Assembly (NCBI GenBank): GCA_044229845.1
Contig: JBGASG010000001.1
Span: 832,001-896,000, forward strand
Source of the DNA: Candidatus Obscuribacteraceae bacterium
Lineage (GTDB): Bacteria > Cyanobacteriota > Vampirovibrionia > Obscuribacterales > Obscuribacteraceae
Direction: 5' to 3'
Length of the DNA: 64,000 nt
How positions within the stretch are numbered: position 1 is the stretch's first letter; the number at the start of each line of letters is the position of its first letter. Positions 7,993 to 19,184 of this stretch are shown here, one piece after another. The position numbers and the translations under genes were made by a program. A model generated the notes under the pieces. That model searched no databases, was not told where the DNA came from, and saw only the letters and a program-made list of their open reading frames with translations.

Positions 7993-8123
7993 GTGTTGGG
8001 CGTTCTGAGATCTCTTGCCAAGTGAGACCTTGAACGTGTGTCCTTGGATTGTATACAATTTTCGACTCGGCAACCTTTGTCTCGCGCACAGCGCCGCAAT
8101 ATATCGCCCTGGAGAATCCGCAC

Positions 8124-8558
8124 ATGAAACTCAAAGTTGTAGTTCCCGTGGTGTCCATCATCGTTCTGGTGGCGGTCGCCGCCTGCGGCTGGGCGTACAT
8201 GAACGCCCAGAACCAACAGGCTGATGCAGAGCGCGAATCGAACATGTCGGTGCTGGATGGCGGTCGAAGGAACCCGAACACCACCATTGTCAAAGCTGCC
8301 AAGGACATTCATAAAGGGCAGACGATTGCCCCGGACGACCTGGAAGAAAGTTCAATTCCTATCTCAAAGGTTCCTGAGAGCGCGCTGGGCTCGTCGTCTA
8401 TGGCGGGTGGCAGAGTTGCAGCTGTGGACATAGCCCAGGGGACGGTACTTCTTTCTGGACACCTGGTAGCACAGATCGCACCATCAGCCTCACAAGAGTC
8501 TAGGAGCAGCGACGCCACTGCAGCCAAGCCTCATAAGAAACACGGAAAACACAAGTAG
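8124..8558 (+). CDS. Membrane-anchored SAF-domain protein (CpaB-like)
   Basis: N-terminal TM helix; IVKAAKDIHKGQTI...GRVAAVDIAQG SAF motif; GGAG RBS before ATG 8124. Confidence 0.78.
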   Translation: MKLKVVVPVVSIIVLVAVAACGWAYMNAQNQQADAERESNMSVLDGGRRNPNTTIVKAAKDIHKGQTIAPDDLEESSIPISKVPESALGSSSMAGGRVAAVDIAQGTVLLSGHLVAQIAPSASQESRSSDATAAKPHKKHGKHK

Positions 8559-8578
8559 CTGCGCGCGGAGGATTCGTT

Positions 8579-8722
8579 GTGAAACCAAAAGTTGTTGTCG
8601 CTGTCGTATCGGTGATCGTTCTAGTCGCAATCGCTGCTTGTGCATGGGCATACATGAGGGCCCAGAGTGAGAAGGCCGAGCAGGACGCGAAAGCAAACAT
8701 GAGTGTAATTGACGGACCTTAG
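8579..8722 (+). CDS. 47-aa truncated paralogue of the upstream SAF protein (TM segment only); small protein or pseudogene
   Basis: GGAGGA RBS, GTG start. MKPKVVVAVVSVIVLVAIAACAWAYMRAQSEKAEQDAKANMSVIDGP aligns with the N-terminus of 8124-8558. Confidence 0.7.
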   Translation: MKPKVVVAVVSVIVLVAIAACAWAYMRAQSEKAEQDAKANMSVIDGP

Positions 8723-8757
8723 ATGGATAGCGGATGCGCACCAGGAGTAGTGGCACT

Positions 8758-9186
8758 GTGAAAAATGACAAGGTGATGAAGCGGGTTTCGGTAATCGTTG
8801 GCGTGATCGTCCTGGTGGCAACCGGAGCCTGTGCCTGGGCGTATTTTAGCCATGGTACCGGTGGAGGTGCCGAATTCGAAGACGGGGCTAACCTACGGCG
8901 GTCGTCGGAAAGCGTGGACAAAGGCATGGTTGTGCGCGCGACCAAAGACATCCCAGAAGGATCGTTGATTGACCCGAGTTATTTGGAAGAATTGTCCATC
9001 GACCAAAGCAAAATTCCAGAATCGGCCATAAGCTCACCGGCGCTGGCCGCTGGTTTGTATGCCTCAGTGCCTATTGCCCAGGGTACAGTTATCCTCCAGG
9101 GGCACTTGAAGCACATATCGCCGCCGCAAGCTAAAACCGAACCTGCCACCAAACCAAAGTCCGGTGCCAAAAAGAAGCACGGCTAG
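8758..9186 (+). CDS. Membrane-anchored SAF-domain protein
   Basis: TM helix, VVRATKDIPEGSLI...PIAQG; AGGAG RBS before GTG 8758. Confidence 0.75.
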   Translation: MKNDKVMKRVSVIVGVIVLVATGACAWAYFSHGTGGGAEFEDGANLRRSSESVDKGMVVRATKDIPEGSLIDPSYLEELSIDQSKIPESAISSPALAAGLYASVPIAQGTVILQGHLKHISPPQAKTEPATKPKSGAKKKHG

Positions 9187-9332: not shown

Positions 9333-10196
9333 ATGGCACCGAGAGCAATCTGGAGCGGCGTTTTAACCTTCGGAATGGTCAGCATTCCAATCAAGCTGTA
9401 CACCGCGACGGAGAACAAAGACATCTCCTTCAACCAGCTGCACAGGGATTGCATGGCGCGTATCAAGCAACAGCGCGTCTGCTCAGCCTGCGAAAAGCAA
9501 CTGGAGTCGGACGATATTGAAAAGGGCTATGAGTACGGCAAAGGTCAATACGTGCTGGTGTCGGACGAAGACCTTGAGAAACTGCCGCTGCCGAACAAGG
9601 GTGCCATTGAGATTTCGACCTTTGTGAAAGCTGAAGAAATCGATCCTGTCTATTACGACAAGAGCTACTACGTAGAACCTGATGAGGCTGCGAAGAAACC
9701 CTTCAAGCTCTTCATGCAGTCGATGCTGAACAAAAACATGACCGCTGTGGCGTCGGTTGCGATCCGCAACAAACAGCGACTCTGCGCGTTGCGCCCATTG
9801 GACGGCACTTTGATGATGAGCACTTTGCTCTACCCGGATGAAATTCGCGTTGAGAAGGGCAAGGCACTCCCGAGCGTTGAGGTGTCCGATAAAGAGCTGG
9901 GCATGGCTGATTCGCTGATCGACATGATGACCGAGCCATTCGATGCCACCGCTTACAAAGATCATTATCGCGAGGCGTTGCTCTCCATTATCGAAGCAAA
10001 ACTGGACGGCAAAGAAGTGGTGGCAGCTCCTGCAGCACCGACCGGCAAGGTGGTCGATTTGATGGAAGCGCTGCAAGCATCTATGGAATCGCTCAAGAAC
10101 AAGAAGAAGACAGACGCCGAGCAACCCAAAGAACCGGTGGCCGCCGCGACGGCGACTGCTGCTTCCAAACGCAGCAAGAAAGCAGCCACAGGCTAG
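9333..10196 (+). CDS. ku: Non-homologous end-joining protein Ku
   Basis: RAIWSGVLTFGMVSIPIKLY, KGYE and VVDLMEAL motifs; basic C-terminal tail. Confidence 0.96.
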   Translation: MAPRAIWSGVLTFGMVSIPIKLYTATENKDISFNQLHRDCMARIKQQRVCSACEKQLESDDIEKGYEYGKGQYVLVSDEDLEKLPLPNKGAIEISTFVKAEEIDPVYYDKSYYVEPDEAAKKPFKLFMQSMLNKNMTAVASVAIRNKQRLCALRPLDGTLMMSTLLYPDEIRVEKGKALPSVEVSDKELGMADSLIDMMTEPFDATAYKDHYREALLSIIEAKLDGKEVVAAPAAPTGKVVDLMEALQASMESLKNKKKTDAEQPKEPVAAATATAASKRSKKAATG

Positions 10197-10222
10197 AGTT
10201 TCCTGGCTACAATCAATAGATT

Positions 10223-12427
10223 ATGAGCCGCTTGCAAATTGCTGAGCTTGAGAGCGCGCGTAAAGCGCTGTTTCCGTCCGCGATTACGCCGATGCTGGCC
10301 AGCCCGACGGAAAAGCCGTTCGCTTCCGACACCTGGATATTCGAGCCCAAGCTGGACGGTATTCGCTGTCTGGCGGCCGTACAAAACGGCAAGGTGACTT
10401 TGCTGTCACGGCGCGGGCTCAACATGACTCATCAGTATCCGGCGCTGGTGGCCAGCCTGGAGAAATCCGTCGATGTCGATATCATCTTGGACGGCGAGAT
10501 CATTGCGTTGGACGAAGACTGCCGACCCTCGTTCCAGCTTTTGCAGCAGCGGATAAACTTGACGAAACGGACGGACATCGATCGTGCCGATGCACGCATT
10601 CCCGCATACTTTTTTGTATTTGACGTGCCCTTCGCCGATGGACATTCGCTGGCGGCGGTTCCGCTCATGCAGCGCAAGGAAGTGCTGAAGGCGTTCGTGT
10701 CGCCATCCGATCATGTGCGTGTTCTCGATCACTTTGAGCGTGAAGGTGTAGCAGCTTATACAGCGTGCATCGATAGCGGTTTTGAAGGCATCGTCGCCAA
10801 ACGGCGCGACAGTCGCTATGAGATGGGGCGAAGATCGCCGGCATGGCTCAAATTGAAAGCTCAACAGACAGGCGACTTCATCATCGTCGGCTATGCGGCG
10901 GGACAGGGGTGGCGGAGCACCACATTCGGCTCTCTGCTCCTGGCTTACTACGATGATGGCGGCAAGCTAATCTATGCAGGCAGCGTCGGCACAGGATTCG
11001 ACGACAAGCTGATTCGCGAACTCGTAACCCGCTTCGATCCTCTGATTACCAAGAAAAAGAACTTTGCCAAGCCGCCGGAAGGCAAAGAGGCGATCACGTG
11101 GTTGATACCGGAATTGGTGGCAGAGATAAAGTTCATGGACTGGACTCACGGGCTGCATCTGCGTTCGCCCGTGTTTTTGCGTTTGCGTGATGACAAGGCG
11201 GCGACCGACATAACGTATCAGGCTACGTTCGGATCGGTGAAGGTTATGGAAGTCGCCGAAGCATCTACTCCAACGTACGTCGCTGTCAGTGCCGGCACGG
11301 CAGGGACGGCAGCTGACGCGGAAGTGCCCCGGGTGGCGGAATTGCAATTGGAACGCCGCGGGGATGACCGAATCTCTTCGATCATCGAGCAGCTAGGAAA
11401 TAAGAAAGAAACTTTCAGTCTGTTCGTCGGCACCGAAACCATTTCATTGACGACCCTCAAAAAGGAATTCTGGCCGGCTGGCGAGGCATCACCGGTGGTG
11501 ACGAAGCGTGACTACCTGATCTACCTGGCGACCATCTCGCCATACCTGCTGCCCCATCTGGCGGGGCGACCATTGACCGTGGTGCGAGCCCCGAACGGGG
11601 TATTGAAGAAACCGTTTTTTCAGAAACACTGGTTCGACCTGCCGGAGTTTTTCGAGACCACCGGAAAAGTCGATGTGGACGGCGAAGACCAGGAGTTTCT
11701 CCTGTGCAATAACCTGGCCACTCTGTTGTACCTGGGTCAGCACAGTGCGCTGGAGTTGCATACGATGGGTGCGCGTGTGCATGGATTCCAGCCTGGCGAG
11801 GGACCGGCTGGCGAAGCTACTTCCAGGACGGAACCCGGCGAGATAACTAATGAACTGCTCGAGTATCCGGATTTTCTGGTGCTCGATCTCGATGTGCATG
11901 AAGAAGGGCATAAATCCAAGCCTGCGACCACCGCGCGTGAGGCGGAGTTTGGCTGGGTTTGCGAGGTTGCCCAGGCGCTCAGAGAACCGCTGCGAGCAAT
12001 AGGCGCCGATCCCTTCGTAAAAGTCTCGGGCAAGGGCGGCTTGCACCTCTATGTTCCGATTCAGAGAAACCTGGATTACGACCACGCGCGGGTGATCAGT
12101 GAGACGCTCGGGCAGCATGCGACGAAACTGAAACCGCACCTGGCAACCACCGCGTTCAAAGTGGAGGCGCGAGTCGGAAAGGTATATGTCGATACCAGTT
12201 CGAATATACATCGGAAGACAATGATTGCTCCTTACTCGCCGAGGCTCACTGCTCTGGGCACCGTCTCGATGCCGGTTAAATGGAATGAACTTGATGCCGG
12301 CAAGTGGATTCCCTGCCGTATGTCCGACGCTGTGCAGCGTCTGAAAACGCAAGGGGATCTCTGGGAGAATATTCTCAAGTCGCGGGTCGACATGCACCGC
12401 AGTATATCCGGCGCAAATAAATCGTAG
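10223..12427 (+). CDS. ligD: DNA ligase D (ATP-dependent ligase plus AEP polymerase domain, no phosphoesterase domain)
   Basis: EPKLDGIR, LDGEI, EGIVAK and WLKLK ligase motifs; VLDLD, SGKGGLH and APYSPR polymerase motifs. Confidence 0.94.
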   Translation: MSRLQIAELESARKALFPSAITPMLASPTEKPFASDTWIFEPKLDGIRCLAAVQNGKVTLLSRRGLNMTHQYPALVASLEKSVDVDIILDGEIIALDEDCRPSFQLLQQRINLTKRTDIDRADARIPAYFFVFDVPFADGHSLAAVPLMQRKEVLKAFVSPSDHVRVLDHFEREGVAAYTACIDSGFEGIVAKRRDSRYEMGRRSPAWLKLKAQQTGDFIIVGYAAGQGWRSTTFGSLLLAYYDDGGKLIYAGSVGTGFDDKLIRELVTRFDPLITKKKNFAKPPEGKEAITWLIPELVAEIKFMDWTHGLHLRSPVFLRLRDDKAATDITYQATFGSVKVMEVAEASTPTYVAVSAGTAGTAADAEVPRVAELQLERRGDDRISSIIEQLGNKKETFSLFVGTETISLTTLKKEFWPAGEASPVVTKRDYLIYLATISPYLLPHLAGRPLTVVRAPNGVLKKPFFQKHWFDLPEFFETTGKVDVDGEDQEFLLCNNLATLLYLGQHSALELHTMGARVHGFQPGEGPAGEATSRTEPGEITNELLEYPDFLVLDLDVHEEGHKSKPATTAREAEFGWVCEVAQALREPLRAIGADPFVKVSGKGGLHLYVPIQRNLDYDHARVISETLGQHATKLKPHLATTAFKVEARVGKVYVDTSSNIHRKTMIAPYSPRLTALGTVSMPVKWNELDAGKWIPCRMSDAVQRLKTQGDLWENILKSRVDMHRSISGANKS

Positions 12428-12730: not shown

Positions 12731-13621
12731 GTGCAAGCGAAAAGCGGCGTTCATGCATTGCAGATGGATCTGGCGTGCATCTCTGTTCATACCGGCGTCT
12801 CACTGATTGAGCTCTACCAGTTTGTCCGGCAGGGCGACCGTCATTACCGGACGTTTCGCATCCCGAAAAAGTCGGGCGGCTTTCGCAAGATACAGGCTCC
12901 CAGTGTTTCCTTGAAAATCGTGCAGCGCTGGATCGGTGCAACCTTGCTGGGCAGCCTGCCGCTTGCCGATGCCTGCACCGGCTATCGCAAAGGTCAATCA
13001 ATCGTCTCAAATGCCGCTCCCCATGCGGGTTCCGACTTTGTGTTCAATGTAGACATCGAACGTTTCTTCCCATCTATTACTGCGCCGCGTGTCAAAGAGC
13101 TCTTCGAGTCGCTCGGGTACAACAGCAAAACGGCCGGGCAACTGACTGCCTTAACTACCGTCAATGGCGTTTTGCCTCAAGGCGCGCCTTCGTCGCCGCA
13201 GATCGCCAATTTGATCTGTGCCCGTCTCGATGAGCGTTTAGAAGAATTTGCCGCGCGCCATGGTTTTGCATTCACTCGCTACTGTGATGACATCACCATT
13301 TCCGGTAAAGGTAGTTTCCGCCGCCGGCAGCGCACCGTATTCGATATCATCGAATCAGAAGGTTTTGCCGTCAATCACAGCAAGGTTCGCCTCGCCTATC
13401 GCGGGCAGCGGCAGGAGGTAACCGGACTGGTAGTCAATTCGTTCGTCAATTTGCCGCGTGAGCGCCGCCGCTTGATACGGGCGATGGTGCACCGTTTCGG
13501 AGCCGGCGAATGTGAGCGGTGGGACGATATGATGCTTTCGACGCAAATGCATGGGCAACTCAGTTATCTGAAGATGGTGCGTCCGGCTGACCGCCTTCTG
13601 AATACAGCCAACGGTCAGTGA
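12731..13621 (+). CDS. Retron-type reverse transcriptase
   Basis: IPKKSGGFRKIQAP, region X NAAPH, DIERFFPSI, LPQGAPSSP, catalytic YCDD and region Y VTG. Alternative start is ATG 12764. Confidence 0.93.
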   Translation: MQAKSGVHALQMDLACISVHTGVSLIELYQFVRQGDRHYRTFRIPKKSGGFRKIQAPSVSLKIVQRWIGATLLGSLPLADACTGYRKGQSIVSNAAPHAGSDFVFNVDIERFFPSITAPRVKELFESLGYNSKTAGQLTALTTVNGVLPQGAPSSPQIANLICARLDERLEEFAARHGFAFTRYCDDITISGKGSFRRRQRTVFDIIESEGFAVNHSKVRLAYRGQRQEVTGLVVNSFVNLPRERRRLIRAMVHRFGAGECERWDDMMLSTQMHGQLSYLKMVRPADRLLNTANGQ

Positions 13622-14082
13622 ACAGCCGCCTTTCTAAATTCATCAACAACTGGACGTTCACTCGCTCTTTGAGTTTGGATTTGCTGCGTTCACTGGGAGA
13701 TGACCAGCTCGACTGGAGTCCTGGACCAGGCGTAGGCACCTTTGCCAAGCAGTTTCGCCATATCGGACGCGTGCAGGAAAATTACATGGCTGCACTTGAT
13801 ACGGGCGTCATTCAATTTTCGACAGCCAACACCAGCTATGGTGGCGGCAGCGATATCGATGCACTGTGCAATTATCTGGCGCAGCTGGATAATCGTCTGC
13901 GTGCCAGGCTCGAAACCATAGACGACGGCATGACGATCGATTGGTTTGGTGAGCAGGTTTCGCTGTGGGAGCATCTCGCCCGCATGGACAGCCACGAGAC
14001 TTTGCACCACGGGCAGTGGATTGTGTACTGTCAGTTGCTGGGTAAACCCTTTCCACCCAGCTGGTCTGTCTGGGGGCTCTGA
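13618..14082 (+). CDS. DinB/YfiT-superfamily protein (candidate retron partner)
   Basis: LDWSP...QFRHI and HETLHHGQ give a His-triad pattern; GTGA start/stop overlap with the RT. Confidence 0.82.
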   Translation: MNSRLSKFINNWTFTRSLSLDLLRSLGDDQLDWSPGPGVGTFAKQFRHIGRVQENYMAALDTGVIQFSTANTSYGGGSDIDALCNYLAQLDNRLRARLETIDDGMTIDWFGEQVSLWEHLARMDSHETLHHGQWIVYCQLLGKPFPPSWSVWGL

Positions 14083-16004: not shown

Positions 16005-16066
16005 CGTCAGCGGTGCATCGCCGAACGCAGCATGATCATCAGACCTTGCTTGGCGATTGACTTGCC

Positions 16067-17062
16067 CTAGCGTTTGACTTGCTGCTGCACCGGATGCGCG
16101 CGCGGGTCGTTGCCTATAAAAGCCTCACGTTTCTTATTGGCGCCCTCCGGTATTTGACCGTCGGCCGTGCGAATGTCTTCGTGCTTGTCGTAAAACGGCT
16201 TTCCGTAATCAGAGAATTTGGCGACGTCGAAGTCGTCGTAGGCTATAAACGGCCGCAGCGCCATGCGTTCGTGCATGATCACGTCGGTTGTCTTCACTGC
16301 TCGGGGCGGCGCCTTTTTGGCGCTGGGATCTATCGCATGCGGATCGTAGAACACATCTGTGTTGTAGAGGCGGTGCGCAATTTCGTACTGAATGTCAAAG
16401 CCCTGCATGCGGCTGCGGTTGCGTTCGGCTTTGGTGTGCTGGTTGAGGTGAGCCAACTGCAATTCGCGAAACTTGGCGTCTTTCTCCGCCCTCGACAGAT
16501 TTGGGTCGATCCAGACCTCATTGAGTTGTTCGGCCAGCCCGAATTCGTTAACCAGGTCCTGCGCGTGCCAGTATCCGGGCAAGCACGTCAACACTGTGCC
16601 GTCGGCAGCCAGGATGAAGACTTGAATGTTATGCGGTCCGGCACCGTTGGTGGTGTCAATGGCGTTGCCATCCACCTGATGTTTTCCTGACGCGCCTGCG
16701 TAGCGCTTGCCGGCGATGTTGCGGTAGCCGCAGATAAACTTGTTTTTGAGACTGCTGAAGGCTGGTTCTGAGGAGAGCGACACGGCTCTCAGGCTATTGC
16801 CGGCACTTCAGGTGGCGCCGTCTATCTTGCCGACCATGTGAACCCAGAGAATCAACTTGTTTTGCTCGGCGGCCGACTTTTCAGCCTTCTTGAGATTGGT
16901 GTACCAGTCGATTTCGGTGGTCAGCTTGTGGACATTAGCCTCACAGACTTCGCCCTGCAATAGCTCTTTGGCTGCAAAGGCGGGTGAGTCCGGCGCCAAT
17001 ATGGCGGTAGCCATAACTAGGAAAAGTGCAGCAAATATGGAGAGAGGTGATTTTCTAGGCAT
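16067..17062 (-). CDS. Putative exported thioredoxin-fold selenoprotein (SelN-like), 331 aa with in-frame TGA at 16810-16808
   Basis: The 84-aa and 238-aa ORFs share one frame joined by ...GKIDGAT-TGA-SAGNSLRAVSLSS...; signal peptide; hairpin 18 nt after the TGA. Confidence 0.72.
16773..16790 (-). promoter_or_regulatory. Candidate bacterial SECIS hairpin
   Basis: GAGAGC-CGUGUC-GCUCUC at +18 to +35 from the UGA, with G at loop position 2. Confidence 0.5.
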
Positions 17063-18773: not shown

Positions 18774-19184
18774 ATGCCCAAACGCACTACCAGGAACATT
18801 GTCATCGCTGTAGTTGCAGGAGTTTTTGTTCTGGCGCTGGGCGCCGGTGCCTTCATTCTCAGCAGTGTCACGGTCATGGACGGCTCGCTGCGCGGGCGTG
18901 ACAGCGAGCGCATGCAAGAGTTAGAAGCGCGGATGGAGGCGGCAAGAGAGCAGAAGCAGGTTCTGTTTGTGGTCAGAGACATCCAAAAAGGGACGGCGAT
19001 CCAGATGGTAGATCTTGAAACGCGTTCGGTGCCGGCGGGAAAAGTTGTTTCCGGAGCATTGACGGAGCCCGAGCAAGCTGTCGGTCGACATGCCAAAGTC
19101 AATATTGCACAGGGCGAAAACCTGATCGAGGACCAACTGGAATCGCCCAAGACTCCGCCTGCAAAGAAAAATGCAAAGGATTAA
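18774..19184 (+). CDS. Membrane-anchored SAF-domain protein
   Basis: TM helix, VLFVVRDIQKGTAI...AVGRHAKVNIAQGE. Confidence 0.78.
   Translation: MPKRTTRNIVIAVVAGVFVLALGAGAFILSSVTVMDGSLRGRDSERMQELEARMEAAREQKQVLFVVRDIQKGTAIQMVDLETRSVPAGKVVSGALTEPEQAVGRHAKVNIAQGENLIEDQLESPKTPPAKKNAKD

Follow-up and report, generated by a model that had tools for sequence, protein, structure and literature searches.

A probable exported selenoprotein family of Obscuribacterales distantly related to the catalytic domain of SELENON

Does an in-frame UGA in a genome assigned to Candidatus Obscuribacteraceae end a gene, or does it encode selenocysteine (Sec) in a protein that annotation has divided in two? The question is raised by a locus on the minus strand of a 64,000-nucleotide stretch of that genome (the window), for which an earlier note, made from the letters alone, had joined two open reading frames and proposed an exported thioredoxin-fold selenoprotein resembling eukaryotic SELENON. 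The lineage lacks the usual selenoproteins and sits under a phylum that, in the available text of a 2022 review, is said to have appeared to be without Sec in an early survey (PMC9312934). Here, we conclude from sequence comparisons that the locus almost certainly represents a real, uncatalogued family of exported selenoproteins that is a distant bacterial relative of SELENON. The family would add a widespread selenoprotein that is split by annotation in almost every record, and it would make a bacterial protein, small and soluble, available as a model of the catalytic domain in SELENON, a human muscle-disease protein; the chemistry of that domain is poorly understood.

RESULTS AND DISCUSSION

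One reading frame with a single internal UGA

The table-11 ORFs at 17062-16808 (84 aa) and 16783-16067 (238 aa) form one frame, as the earlier note had claimed; the only internal stop between 17062 and 16067 is the TGA at 16810-16808, read here as U85, and both the length of 331 aa and the motifs quoted previously were recovered from the sequence (Table 1). This TGA is not an assembly error, as no alternative letter was found in the covering contigs of four of four runs, three of which are possibly the source of the window DNA. The codon that ends the frame varied among the four runs compared, being TAG in three and CAG in one, and a 96%-identical relative from a Candidatus Obscuribacterales MAG continues for 20 residues past the TAG of the window frame. 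The usual family length is taken to be 351 aa because of that CAG and the longer relative; the terminal TAG is a premature allele, and the source strain's copy is 20 residues short. Since the lost C-terminal tail is variable in the family and missing from two distant members, the shortened form probably folds.

Export by means of a signal peptide is predicted, and this part of the original proposal was upheld by a hydrophobic N-terminal stretch in 52 of 56 distinct homologues. The suspicion that standard annotation splits the gene was also borne out: 118 of the 120 top database matches begin after the UGA and so lack the N-terminal part, and 21 of 150 database representatives stop at residue 84. 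Longer fused forms numbered 0 among 8000 candidates, which is weak evidence. RNA contigs from one run covered positions 16066-16819 piecewise, with DNA carry-over as a possible source, and a promoter and terminator scan of the gene's strand gave nothing exceeding shuffles.

Table 1. Features of the selenoprotein locus, in window coordinates
Feature	Position	Strand	Remarks
Selenoprotein coding frame	16067..17062	-	331 aa in source strain; 351 aa with CAG allele
Signal peptide (predicted), residues 1-30, ending A-F-A	16973..17062	-	By eye and by hydrophobicity prediction; pLDDT low at 1-31
Thioredoxin-fold domain (modelled), residues 37-185	16508..16954	-	Homologous to SELENON C-terminal domain
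In-frame UGA, selenocysteine 85 (predicted)	16808..16810	-	Motif G-x-x-D-G-x-T-U-S-A-[GA]-N-S-L-R
Bacterial SECIS hairpin (candidate)	16773..16790	-	6-bp stem GAGAGC/GCTCTC, loop CGUGUC at 16784-16779; from conservation and published model
Near-invariant loop T-x-N-G-A-G-P-H-N-x-Q, residues 137-147	16622..16654	-	Occupies the cis-Pro loop position of thioredoxins; probable substrate site
Helical C-terminal domain, residues 186-305	16148..16507	-	Conserved; confident model, no clear fold match
Premature TAG	16067..16069	-	CAG in relatives and in 1 of 4 runs
Lost C-terminal tail (19 codons plus the stop usual in the family)	16007..16066	-	Basic, hydrophobic, variable within family

Conservation of the UGA column and of the hairpin beyond it

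Homologues had been expected to carry either Cys or TGA at the column of U85. The 61 alignments that cover this column (out of 73 loci, some of them duplicated, with 56 distinct coding sequences) gave 60 TGA codons and one TGC, while the normal stops of the same genes were TAA in 32, TAG in 19, and TGA in 8, with one gene at a contig end. The TGA is retained in homologues with as little as 44% identity and outside the phylum, and MAGs under the titles Bryobacterales and Fimbriimonas/Fimbriimonadales likewise contain TGA forms. Among the 10 full-length rows without TGA, the expectation held for six with Cys (P0015, P0131, P0167, P0170, P0276, and P0285, two of the Cys forms coming from Planctomycetota) and did not hold for one with Ser (P0122) or for three with other residues (P0208, P0217, and P0223). 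Because some relatives have neither Cys nor Sec at the column, the thioredoxin fold can persist without redox chemistry; P0122, a close family member, sits on a long branch inside the Sec clade and is possibly noncatalytic. Two database proteins, P0097 and P0139, show Trp at the column. P0097 differs at 4 of 330 positions from locus L036, and the Trp is a gene caller's reading of TGA, since this near-identical locus has TGA there. In every TGA row (42/42), U is preceded by Thr and followed by Ser, in agreement with the TU motif that had been proposed.

The hairpin begins at the 18th base past the UGA (17 nt between), which confirms the position given in the earlier note, and its loop lies 23 nt from the UGA. 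Its predicted energy (−8.1 to −8.9 kcal/mol) is by itself within chance (z of −1.4 to +0.2), and 791 TGA sites in the genome pass a loose SECIS filter. The synonymous codons are more informative: at A93, V94, S95, and L96, codon entropy was 0, 0, 0.31, and 0 bits, compared with a mean of 1.69 and a minimum of 0.99 bits across 44 further conserved sites of four- or six-fold degeneracy, and R92 is encoded by AGA or AGG only. Across 49 distinct segments, 290 of 294 stem cells were paired, against 43 to 69% in a slid-partner control. The stem is invariant within the family, with no two-sided (covarying) change. As judged from these codon and pairing data, the hairpin is under selection, and with its CGUGUC loop, 23-nt distance, and energy of −8.1 it fits the bacterial SECIS model as laid out in the available text of PMC13188914.

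A second Sec paralogue in the genome (L043; G000:C1:426070-426960, plus strand) is 44% identical and has the same hairpin, with loop CGGGUC; its C terminus is longer and appears TPR-like by eye. For L010 and L040, record titles and content are at odds: L010 is titled Proteobacteria and yet matches the order member G068, and a fragment lies on a short Flavobacterium MAG contig and is probably misbinned.

Selenocysteine machinery in the host genome and in the order

The machinery that the earlier note had proposed to look for is complete in the host genome, which contains selA, a tRNA-Sec gene (selC) scoring 66.9 bits against an Rfam cutoff of 47, a SelB wing domain within a 652-codon frame, and a Cys-type selD. 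TGA is also an ordinary stop in this genome, terminating 338 of 955 open frames of at least 500 codons. Together, the conserved TGA, the Cys homologues, the selected hairpin, and the full selA, selB, selC, and selD set support the recoding that had been proposed, and decoding of the UGA as selenocysteine, which we infer from conservation and the established bacterial pathway, is close to certain. The arrangement resembles known bacterial Sec recoding (UGA, in-frame SECIS, SelA/B/C/D) in that all the genes are present and the hairpin satisfies the limits published for its loop, the position of the G, the distance, and the energy; it differs in that the usual carriers, Fdh-alpha and SelD, are nearly all not selenoproteins in Obscuribacterales. 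Fdh-alpha-like matches were found in 83 of 107 order genomes, none with an internal stop; TGA occurred in 1 of 92 SelD matches from the order genomes; and the AhpC/TSA and molybdopterin matches of the host had no internal stop.

The family was matched in 91 of 107 genomes of Obscuribacterales, which are nonphotosynthetic Cyanobacteriota, often in two to four copies, a count in which weak matches include the sister family with a CU motif described below. Among the family matches listed from these genomes, outside which a further 95 matches fall, all but one show one TGA, and the exception starts at residue 88. Twenty-one order genomes had no selA match; 10 of them also had no family match, and of the 11 with a family match, ten are at most 86% complete and one is 93% complete. 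Six order genomes have selA and no family match. Co-occurrence of selA and the family gave a Fisher p of 4e-5, a value on which we do not rely because related genomes are not independent samples and weak sister-family matches enter the family count. Elsewhere in the phylum, selA was found in 19 of 400 sampled genomes and in 0 of 46 genomes of the family that holds most of the Cys relatives.

A coding-plus-hairpin screen of the 791 TGA sites, which is blind to Sec near protein ends, ranked the two Sec paralogues first and third. The second rank went to a zinc-finger and membrane protein with a CxxU motif (L135:553-1059, minus strand; G000:C1:810152-810658), which has TGA in the same column in six of six aligned loci, a hairpin with a G-rich loop, and no Pfam or NCBIfam match. 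The idea that the family is the genome's sole selenoprotein was rejected in view of this second candidate and the six genomes with selA and no family match. Five order genomes (G041, G056, G104, G105, and G106) have selA and are matched by none of the family, its CU sister family, and the zinc-finger candidate, and it is therefore likely that they hold further, unknown selenoproteins.

Domain structure and active site

An AlphaFold2 model built from a 52-sequence alignment (pLDDT of 87) supports the thioredoxin fold that had been proposed. The best structural match was a DsbD-type thioredoxin domain (3f9u; Z of 9.6, rmsd of 2.6 over 110 residues), followed by 2lst (Z of 8.5), the DUF255-type 3ira (Z of 8.2), and AGR3 (Z of 7.6), and Foldseek agrees on the fold at E values of 0.004 and above. 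These matches are modest (Z of 8 to 9.6), and a common fold in a model is not evidence of function. A sequence search of the PDB gave 0 matches, and searches of the ESM Atlas with a Cys homologue and a paralogue as queries returned only unnamed clusters and thioredoxin leads below 0.9.

In the model, U85 occupies the attacking-Cys site of the thioredoxin fold, just before the helix at 86-95, and in alignments with thioredoxins of the same genome it falls on the first Cys of CxxC. Position +3 after U is Gly or Ala (UxxG or UxxA) and position −1 is Thr, so the motif holds no resolving Cys; C111 and C160 are common in the family and missing from most Cys forms. Judged by alignment, the thioredoxin cis-Pro is replaced by Asn, Asn145 being aligned with a Pro of SELENON. 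Residues 165-305 folded alone reached a pLDDT of 93, and the C-terminal domain alone gave a best Z of 4.8 and no Foldseek match under an E of 1.5, which does not show a new fold.

A distant sister family of SELENON

The claim that the protein resembles SELENON proved correct for the catalytic domain, and homology there is real as far as profile comparisons can tell. A eukaryote-only profile of the SELENON C-terminal domain matches the protein (P0001) at an E of 1.7e-6. When the host genome was searched as 39,371 six-frame pieces, the SELENON profile ranked the three paralogues at the top (E of 2.5e-6, 0.0013, and 0.18; the next was 1.5), even though the genome has 11 Thioredoxin_7 matches. Conversely, most SELENON proteins reach E values of 2e-8 to 1e-3 against the profile of the family, with the best of 10 control thioredoxins at 6.3; some partial or divergent SELENON entries did no better than the controls. 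Profile-profile comparison of the family with SELENON gave a probability of 95.8% and an E of 7e-9 over 113 columns, with U on U, against 68% and 26% for the controls. A metagenome motif scan yielded 30 loci, of which 11 transcript-like ones were aligned; as they were selected by motif, they are unusable for motif conservation. One of these transcript-like loci was confirmed as SELENON by 44 to 53% identity to named animal proteins.

The resemblance stops short of membership. In a tree of 56 domains, from which two controls were left out, the Sec clade was supported at 99/98, with the Cys form P0015 and the Ser form P0122 nested inside, and SELENON and a bacterial locus, L108, formed a long 100/99 branch that excludes the family; the deeper order among the groups, including which bacterial group is nearest SELENON, was not resolved. 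According to the available text of PMC7474598, a membrane anchor and an EF-hand are SELENON hallmarks, and the available part of PMC12839072 gives the SCUG motif as another. Because anchor, EF-hand (no Pfam match in P0001), and SCUG motif are all absent, the family is not a SELENON member; on sequence criteria it is distantly related, as a sister family and not as an orthologue. The two share a homologous thioredoxin domain with Sec in the same column on the lumenal or periplasmic side of a membrane, G-x-[LI]-D before Sec and U-x-x-G-x-x-L-R after it, and a stem-loop past the UGA on nearly the same axis. They differ in that the family has TU instead of CU, lacks the central region of SELENON, has Asn where the F-P-V loop has Pro, and carries an extra helical C-terminal domain. 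It also has a cleavable-type signal peptide, with the thioredoxin domain starting at residue 37 and only 84 residues before U; in SELENON the region before the thioredoxin domain exceeds 400 residues in transcript-like loci and is 296 residues long in L108. The active-site spacing of SELENON, which the earlier note had taken to be the same, is the same after Sec and one residue shorter in the family before it. PDB searches found no structure for SELENON.

Comparison with other known families

No Pfam or NCBIfam model scored over its cutoff for P0001, for the full-length Cys homologues, or, going by the best E values listed, for the 52 aligned members. The VPGUxxT selenoproteins (NF041382 and NF041383), which are likewise thioredoxin-like, were the only selenoprotein-family models to score at all, but the best score was 16.4 bits against a cutoff of 275, 3 and 1 of 52 members reached an E of 1 or less, and the VPGU motif is absent. 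The Thioredoxin_7, DUF255, DsbD C-terminal, and AGR/ERp18 families share the fold subtype and an N-terminal W...A...A...K helix, whereas the family has no CxxC and, by alignment, no cis-Pro; P0001 has no Pfam match among them, and their scores against the family profile are far below those of SELENON. A match to SenA over 28 residues (E of 0.05 to 0.07) was rejected.

A table of 119 prokaryotic selenoprotein families in a 2026 review includes none with the family's motif, and the text of that review mentions neither SELENON nor Cyanobacteria (PMC13188914). The available parts of deep-Sep and BSepDB likewise hold no mention of SELENON or of Cyanobacteria, and the available BSepDB genome list has 18 Vampirovibrionia rows, none named Obscuribacter. 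No description of the family or of Sec in Obscuribacterales was found in the literature, mostly open-access papers.

Proposed function and alternatives

We favor, with a little more confidence than doubt, a single-selenol periplasmic reductase that acts on a specific partner and is rereduced from outside. SelB with Sec-tRNA would bind the hairpin (16790-16773) and thereby place selenocysteine at the UGA, and the product would be exported by its predicted signal peptide. Sec85, which the model puts at the head of the active-site helix, the place of the attacking Cys in thioredoxins, would attack an oxidized sulfur group on a specific partner gripped by the 137-147 loop and the helical domain; a mixed Se-S bond would form, and an outside reductant such as a DsbD-type system would then release the protein. 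The available text of PMC7474598 describes the Sec of SELENON as the attacking residue of a reductase. Single-selenol action is most likely because the motif offers no partner Cys (UxxG, with Thr before U). By our own reading, the host genome has a DsbD-like frame (L111). No neighboring gene is conserved across the family, and the gene neighborhood gave no pathway pointer.

The same lone Sec without a resolving Cys would also suit an enzyme acting on small molecules, for instance in reductive dehalogenation or S- or N-oxide reduction, in a closed pocket built by the loop and the helical domain. Its T-U dipeptide recalls deiodinases, and the strongly conserved polar residues N139, Q147, R216, D223, H264, and R266 lie away from Sec and resemble a defined pocket. 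We nevertheless consider this rather unlikely: the deiodinase family was unmatched among the 52 members in Pfam and NCBIfam, and the closest homologous family, SELENON, acts on proteins according to the available part of PMC7474598.

A one-Sec periplasmic peroxidase is a weaker candidate again. Sec at a thioredoxin active site and the invariant Asn, Gln, and Trp, of kinds also employed by glutathione peroxidases, are in keeping with such an enzyme, but there was no AhpC, redoxin, or GPx family match, the fold neighbors are of DsbD, DUF255, and AGR/ERp18 types and not peroxiredoxins, and no TxxU or UxxT motif is present.

It is improbable that the UGA serves mainly as a selenium-dependent switch, with a short exported peptide or a separately started downstream ORF as the functional product and the full-length protein secondary. 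Translation of the downstream part could begin from an in-frame GTG (codon 94), which is how gene callers report the 118 of 120 top matches; however, a stop at the UGA would leave the thioredoxin domain with its first strand alone, the GTG in question forms the SECIS loop, and the Cys homologues are single chains. Marginally less probable still is true orthology with SELENON, with calcium sensing and control of an ion pump as the role, as the homologous catalytic domain and common UxxG...LR motif would allow, given that EF-hand match, anchor, and central region are lacking, TU stands for CU, and SELENON groups with L108 at 100/99 with the family outside. Finally, the view that the locus is a pseudogene, that the TGA is a sequencing error, or that it is translated as Trp, to which the Trp residues of P0097 and P0139 and the separate nonsense allele near the end of this copy could point, was ruled out by TGA conservation to 44% identity and across phyla, the codon entropy, the four runs, the comparison of P0097 with L036, and the use of TGA as a stop in 338 of 955 long frames.

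A wider superfamily and a possible origin of the hairpin

Relatives with a CU motif form a sister family (L044/L142, at G000:C1:709199-710044 on the minus strand, and L144-L166) with the motif G-x-L-D-x-x-x-C-U-T-N-A-R, a second uncatalogued selenoprotein family. It is present in 43 of 107 order genomes, and 25 loci read had C-TGA in 23 and C-TGC in 2; the host copy, the Cys paralogue L044, has switched to Cys and retained the hairpin. The sister-family hairpin has the same register and loop start, with 138 of 138 cells paired, and a compensatory change from G-C to A-U at one pair in 23 of 23. A bacterial-looking, full-length SELENON homologue with the SCUG motif, known from a single record (L108:1170-2396, minus strand; a 409-codon frame of 58% G+C), has a lipoprotein-like start and a bacterial-looking neighbor, is followed by pilin-like frames, and carries the same six stem pairs as the family hairpin. 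The best explanation of these sequence relationships is that the TU family, the CU sister family, and true bacterial SELENON homologues make up one SELENON-type superfamily.

In eukaryote-type segments, the dominant post-UGA stem lies on axis 50 or 51 in 21 of 22 distinct sequences, the exception being cut by an intron, and in family segments it lies on axis 51 in 42 of 49. By this comparison, the recoding stem-loop of animal SELENON shares the axis of the family hairpin to within 1 nt; we take the eukaryotic stem to be the SRE described in the available text of PMC8704476, from its position. Cells paired on axis 51 numbered 91 of 132 in eukaryotic sequences and 27 of 54 in Cys relatives, and nine Cys-only relatives from other parts of the phylum had no such stem axis. 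The shared register is open to overreading, as SelB geometry limits where a hairpin can be placed and the codons of L-R-x-x-x-L favor pairing. What appears to be new here is that the CU sister family and bacterial SELENON share the hairpin register and that the animal stem-loop lies within 1 nt of its axis.

For SPS genes, Mariotti and colleagues proposed that SREs derive from bacterial SECIS elements (PMC4561486, available text). The shared register would make SELENON a second gene, after SelD/SPS, for that speculated descent. Tentatively, and with more doubt than confidence, we suggest that SELENON-type ancestors were exported bacterial selenoproteins with one ancestral in-frame SECIS, which persists near-identically in the TU family, the CU sister family, and bacterial SELENON, that the animal SRE, a site of disease mutations, may be its relic, and that these uncatalogued families, not formate dehydrogenase or SelD, may mainly keep the Sec system in Obscuribacterales. 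A further set of exported relatives (L122-L131) is Cys-only, with frames of 390 to 525 codons; among 400 genomes sampled elsewhere in the phylum, 22 contain them, mostly in the family without a selA match.

Other observations in the window

On the plus strand, a reverse transcriptase at 12731-14082 (PF00078, 296 aa) overlaps a DinB-family gene by 4 bases and could represent a retron-like or other defense unit. A gene pair at 9333-12427 (plus strand) appears Ku-like and LigD-like from its translations. Three short SAF-domain-like proteins, each with an N-terminal membrane helix and a basic tail, are encoded on the plus strand at 8049-9186 and 18774-19184, and Pfam confirms one of them.
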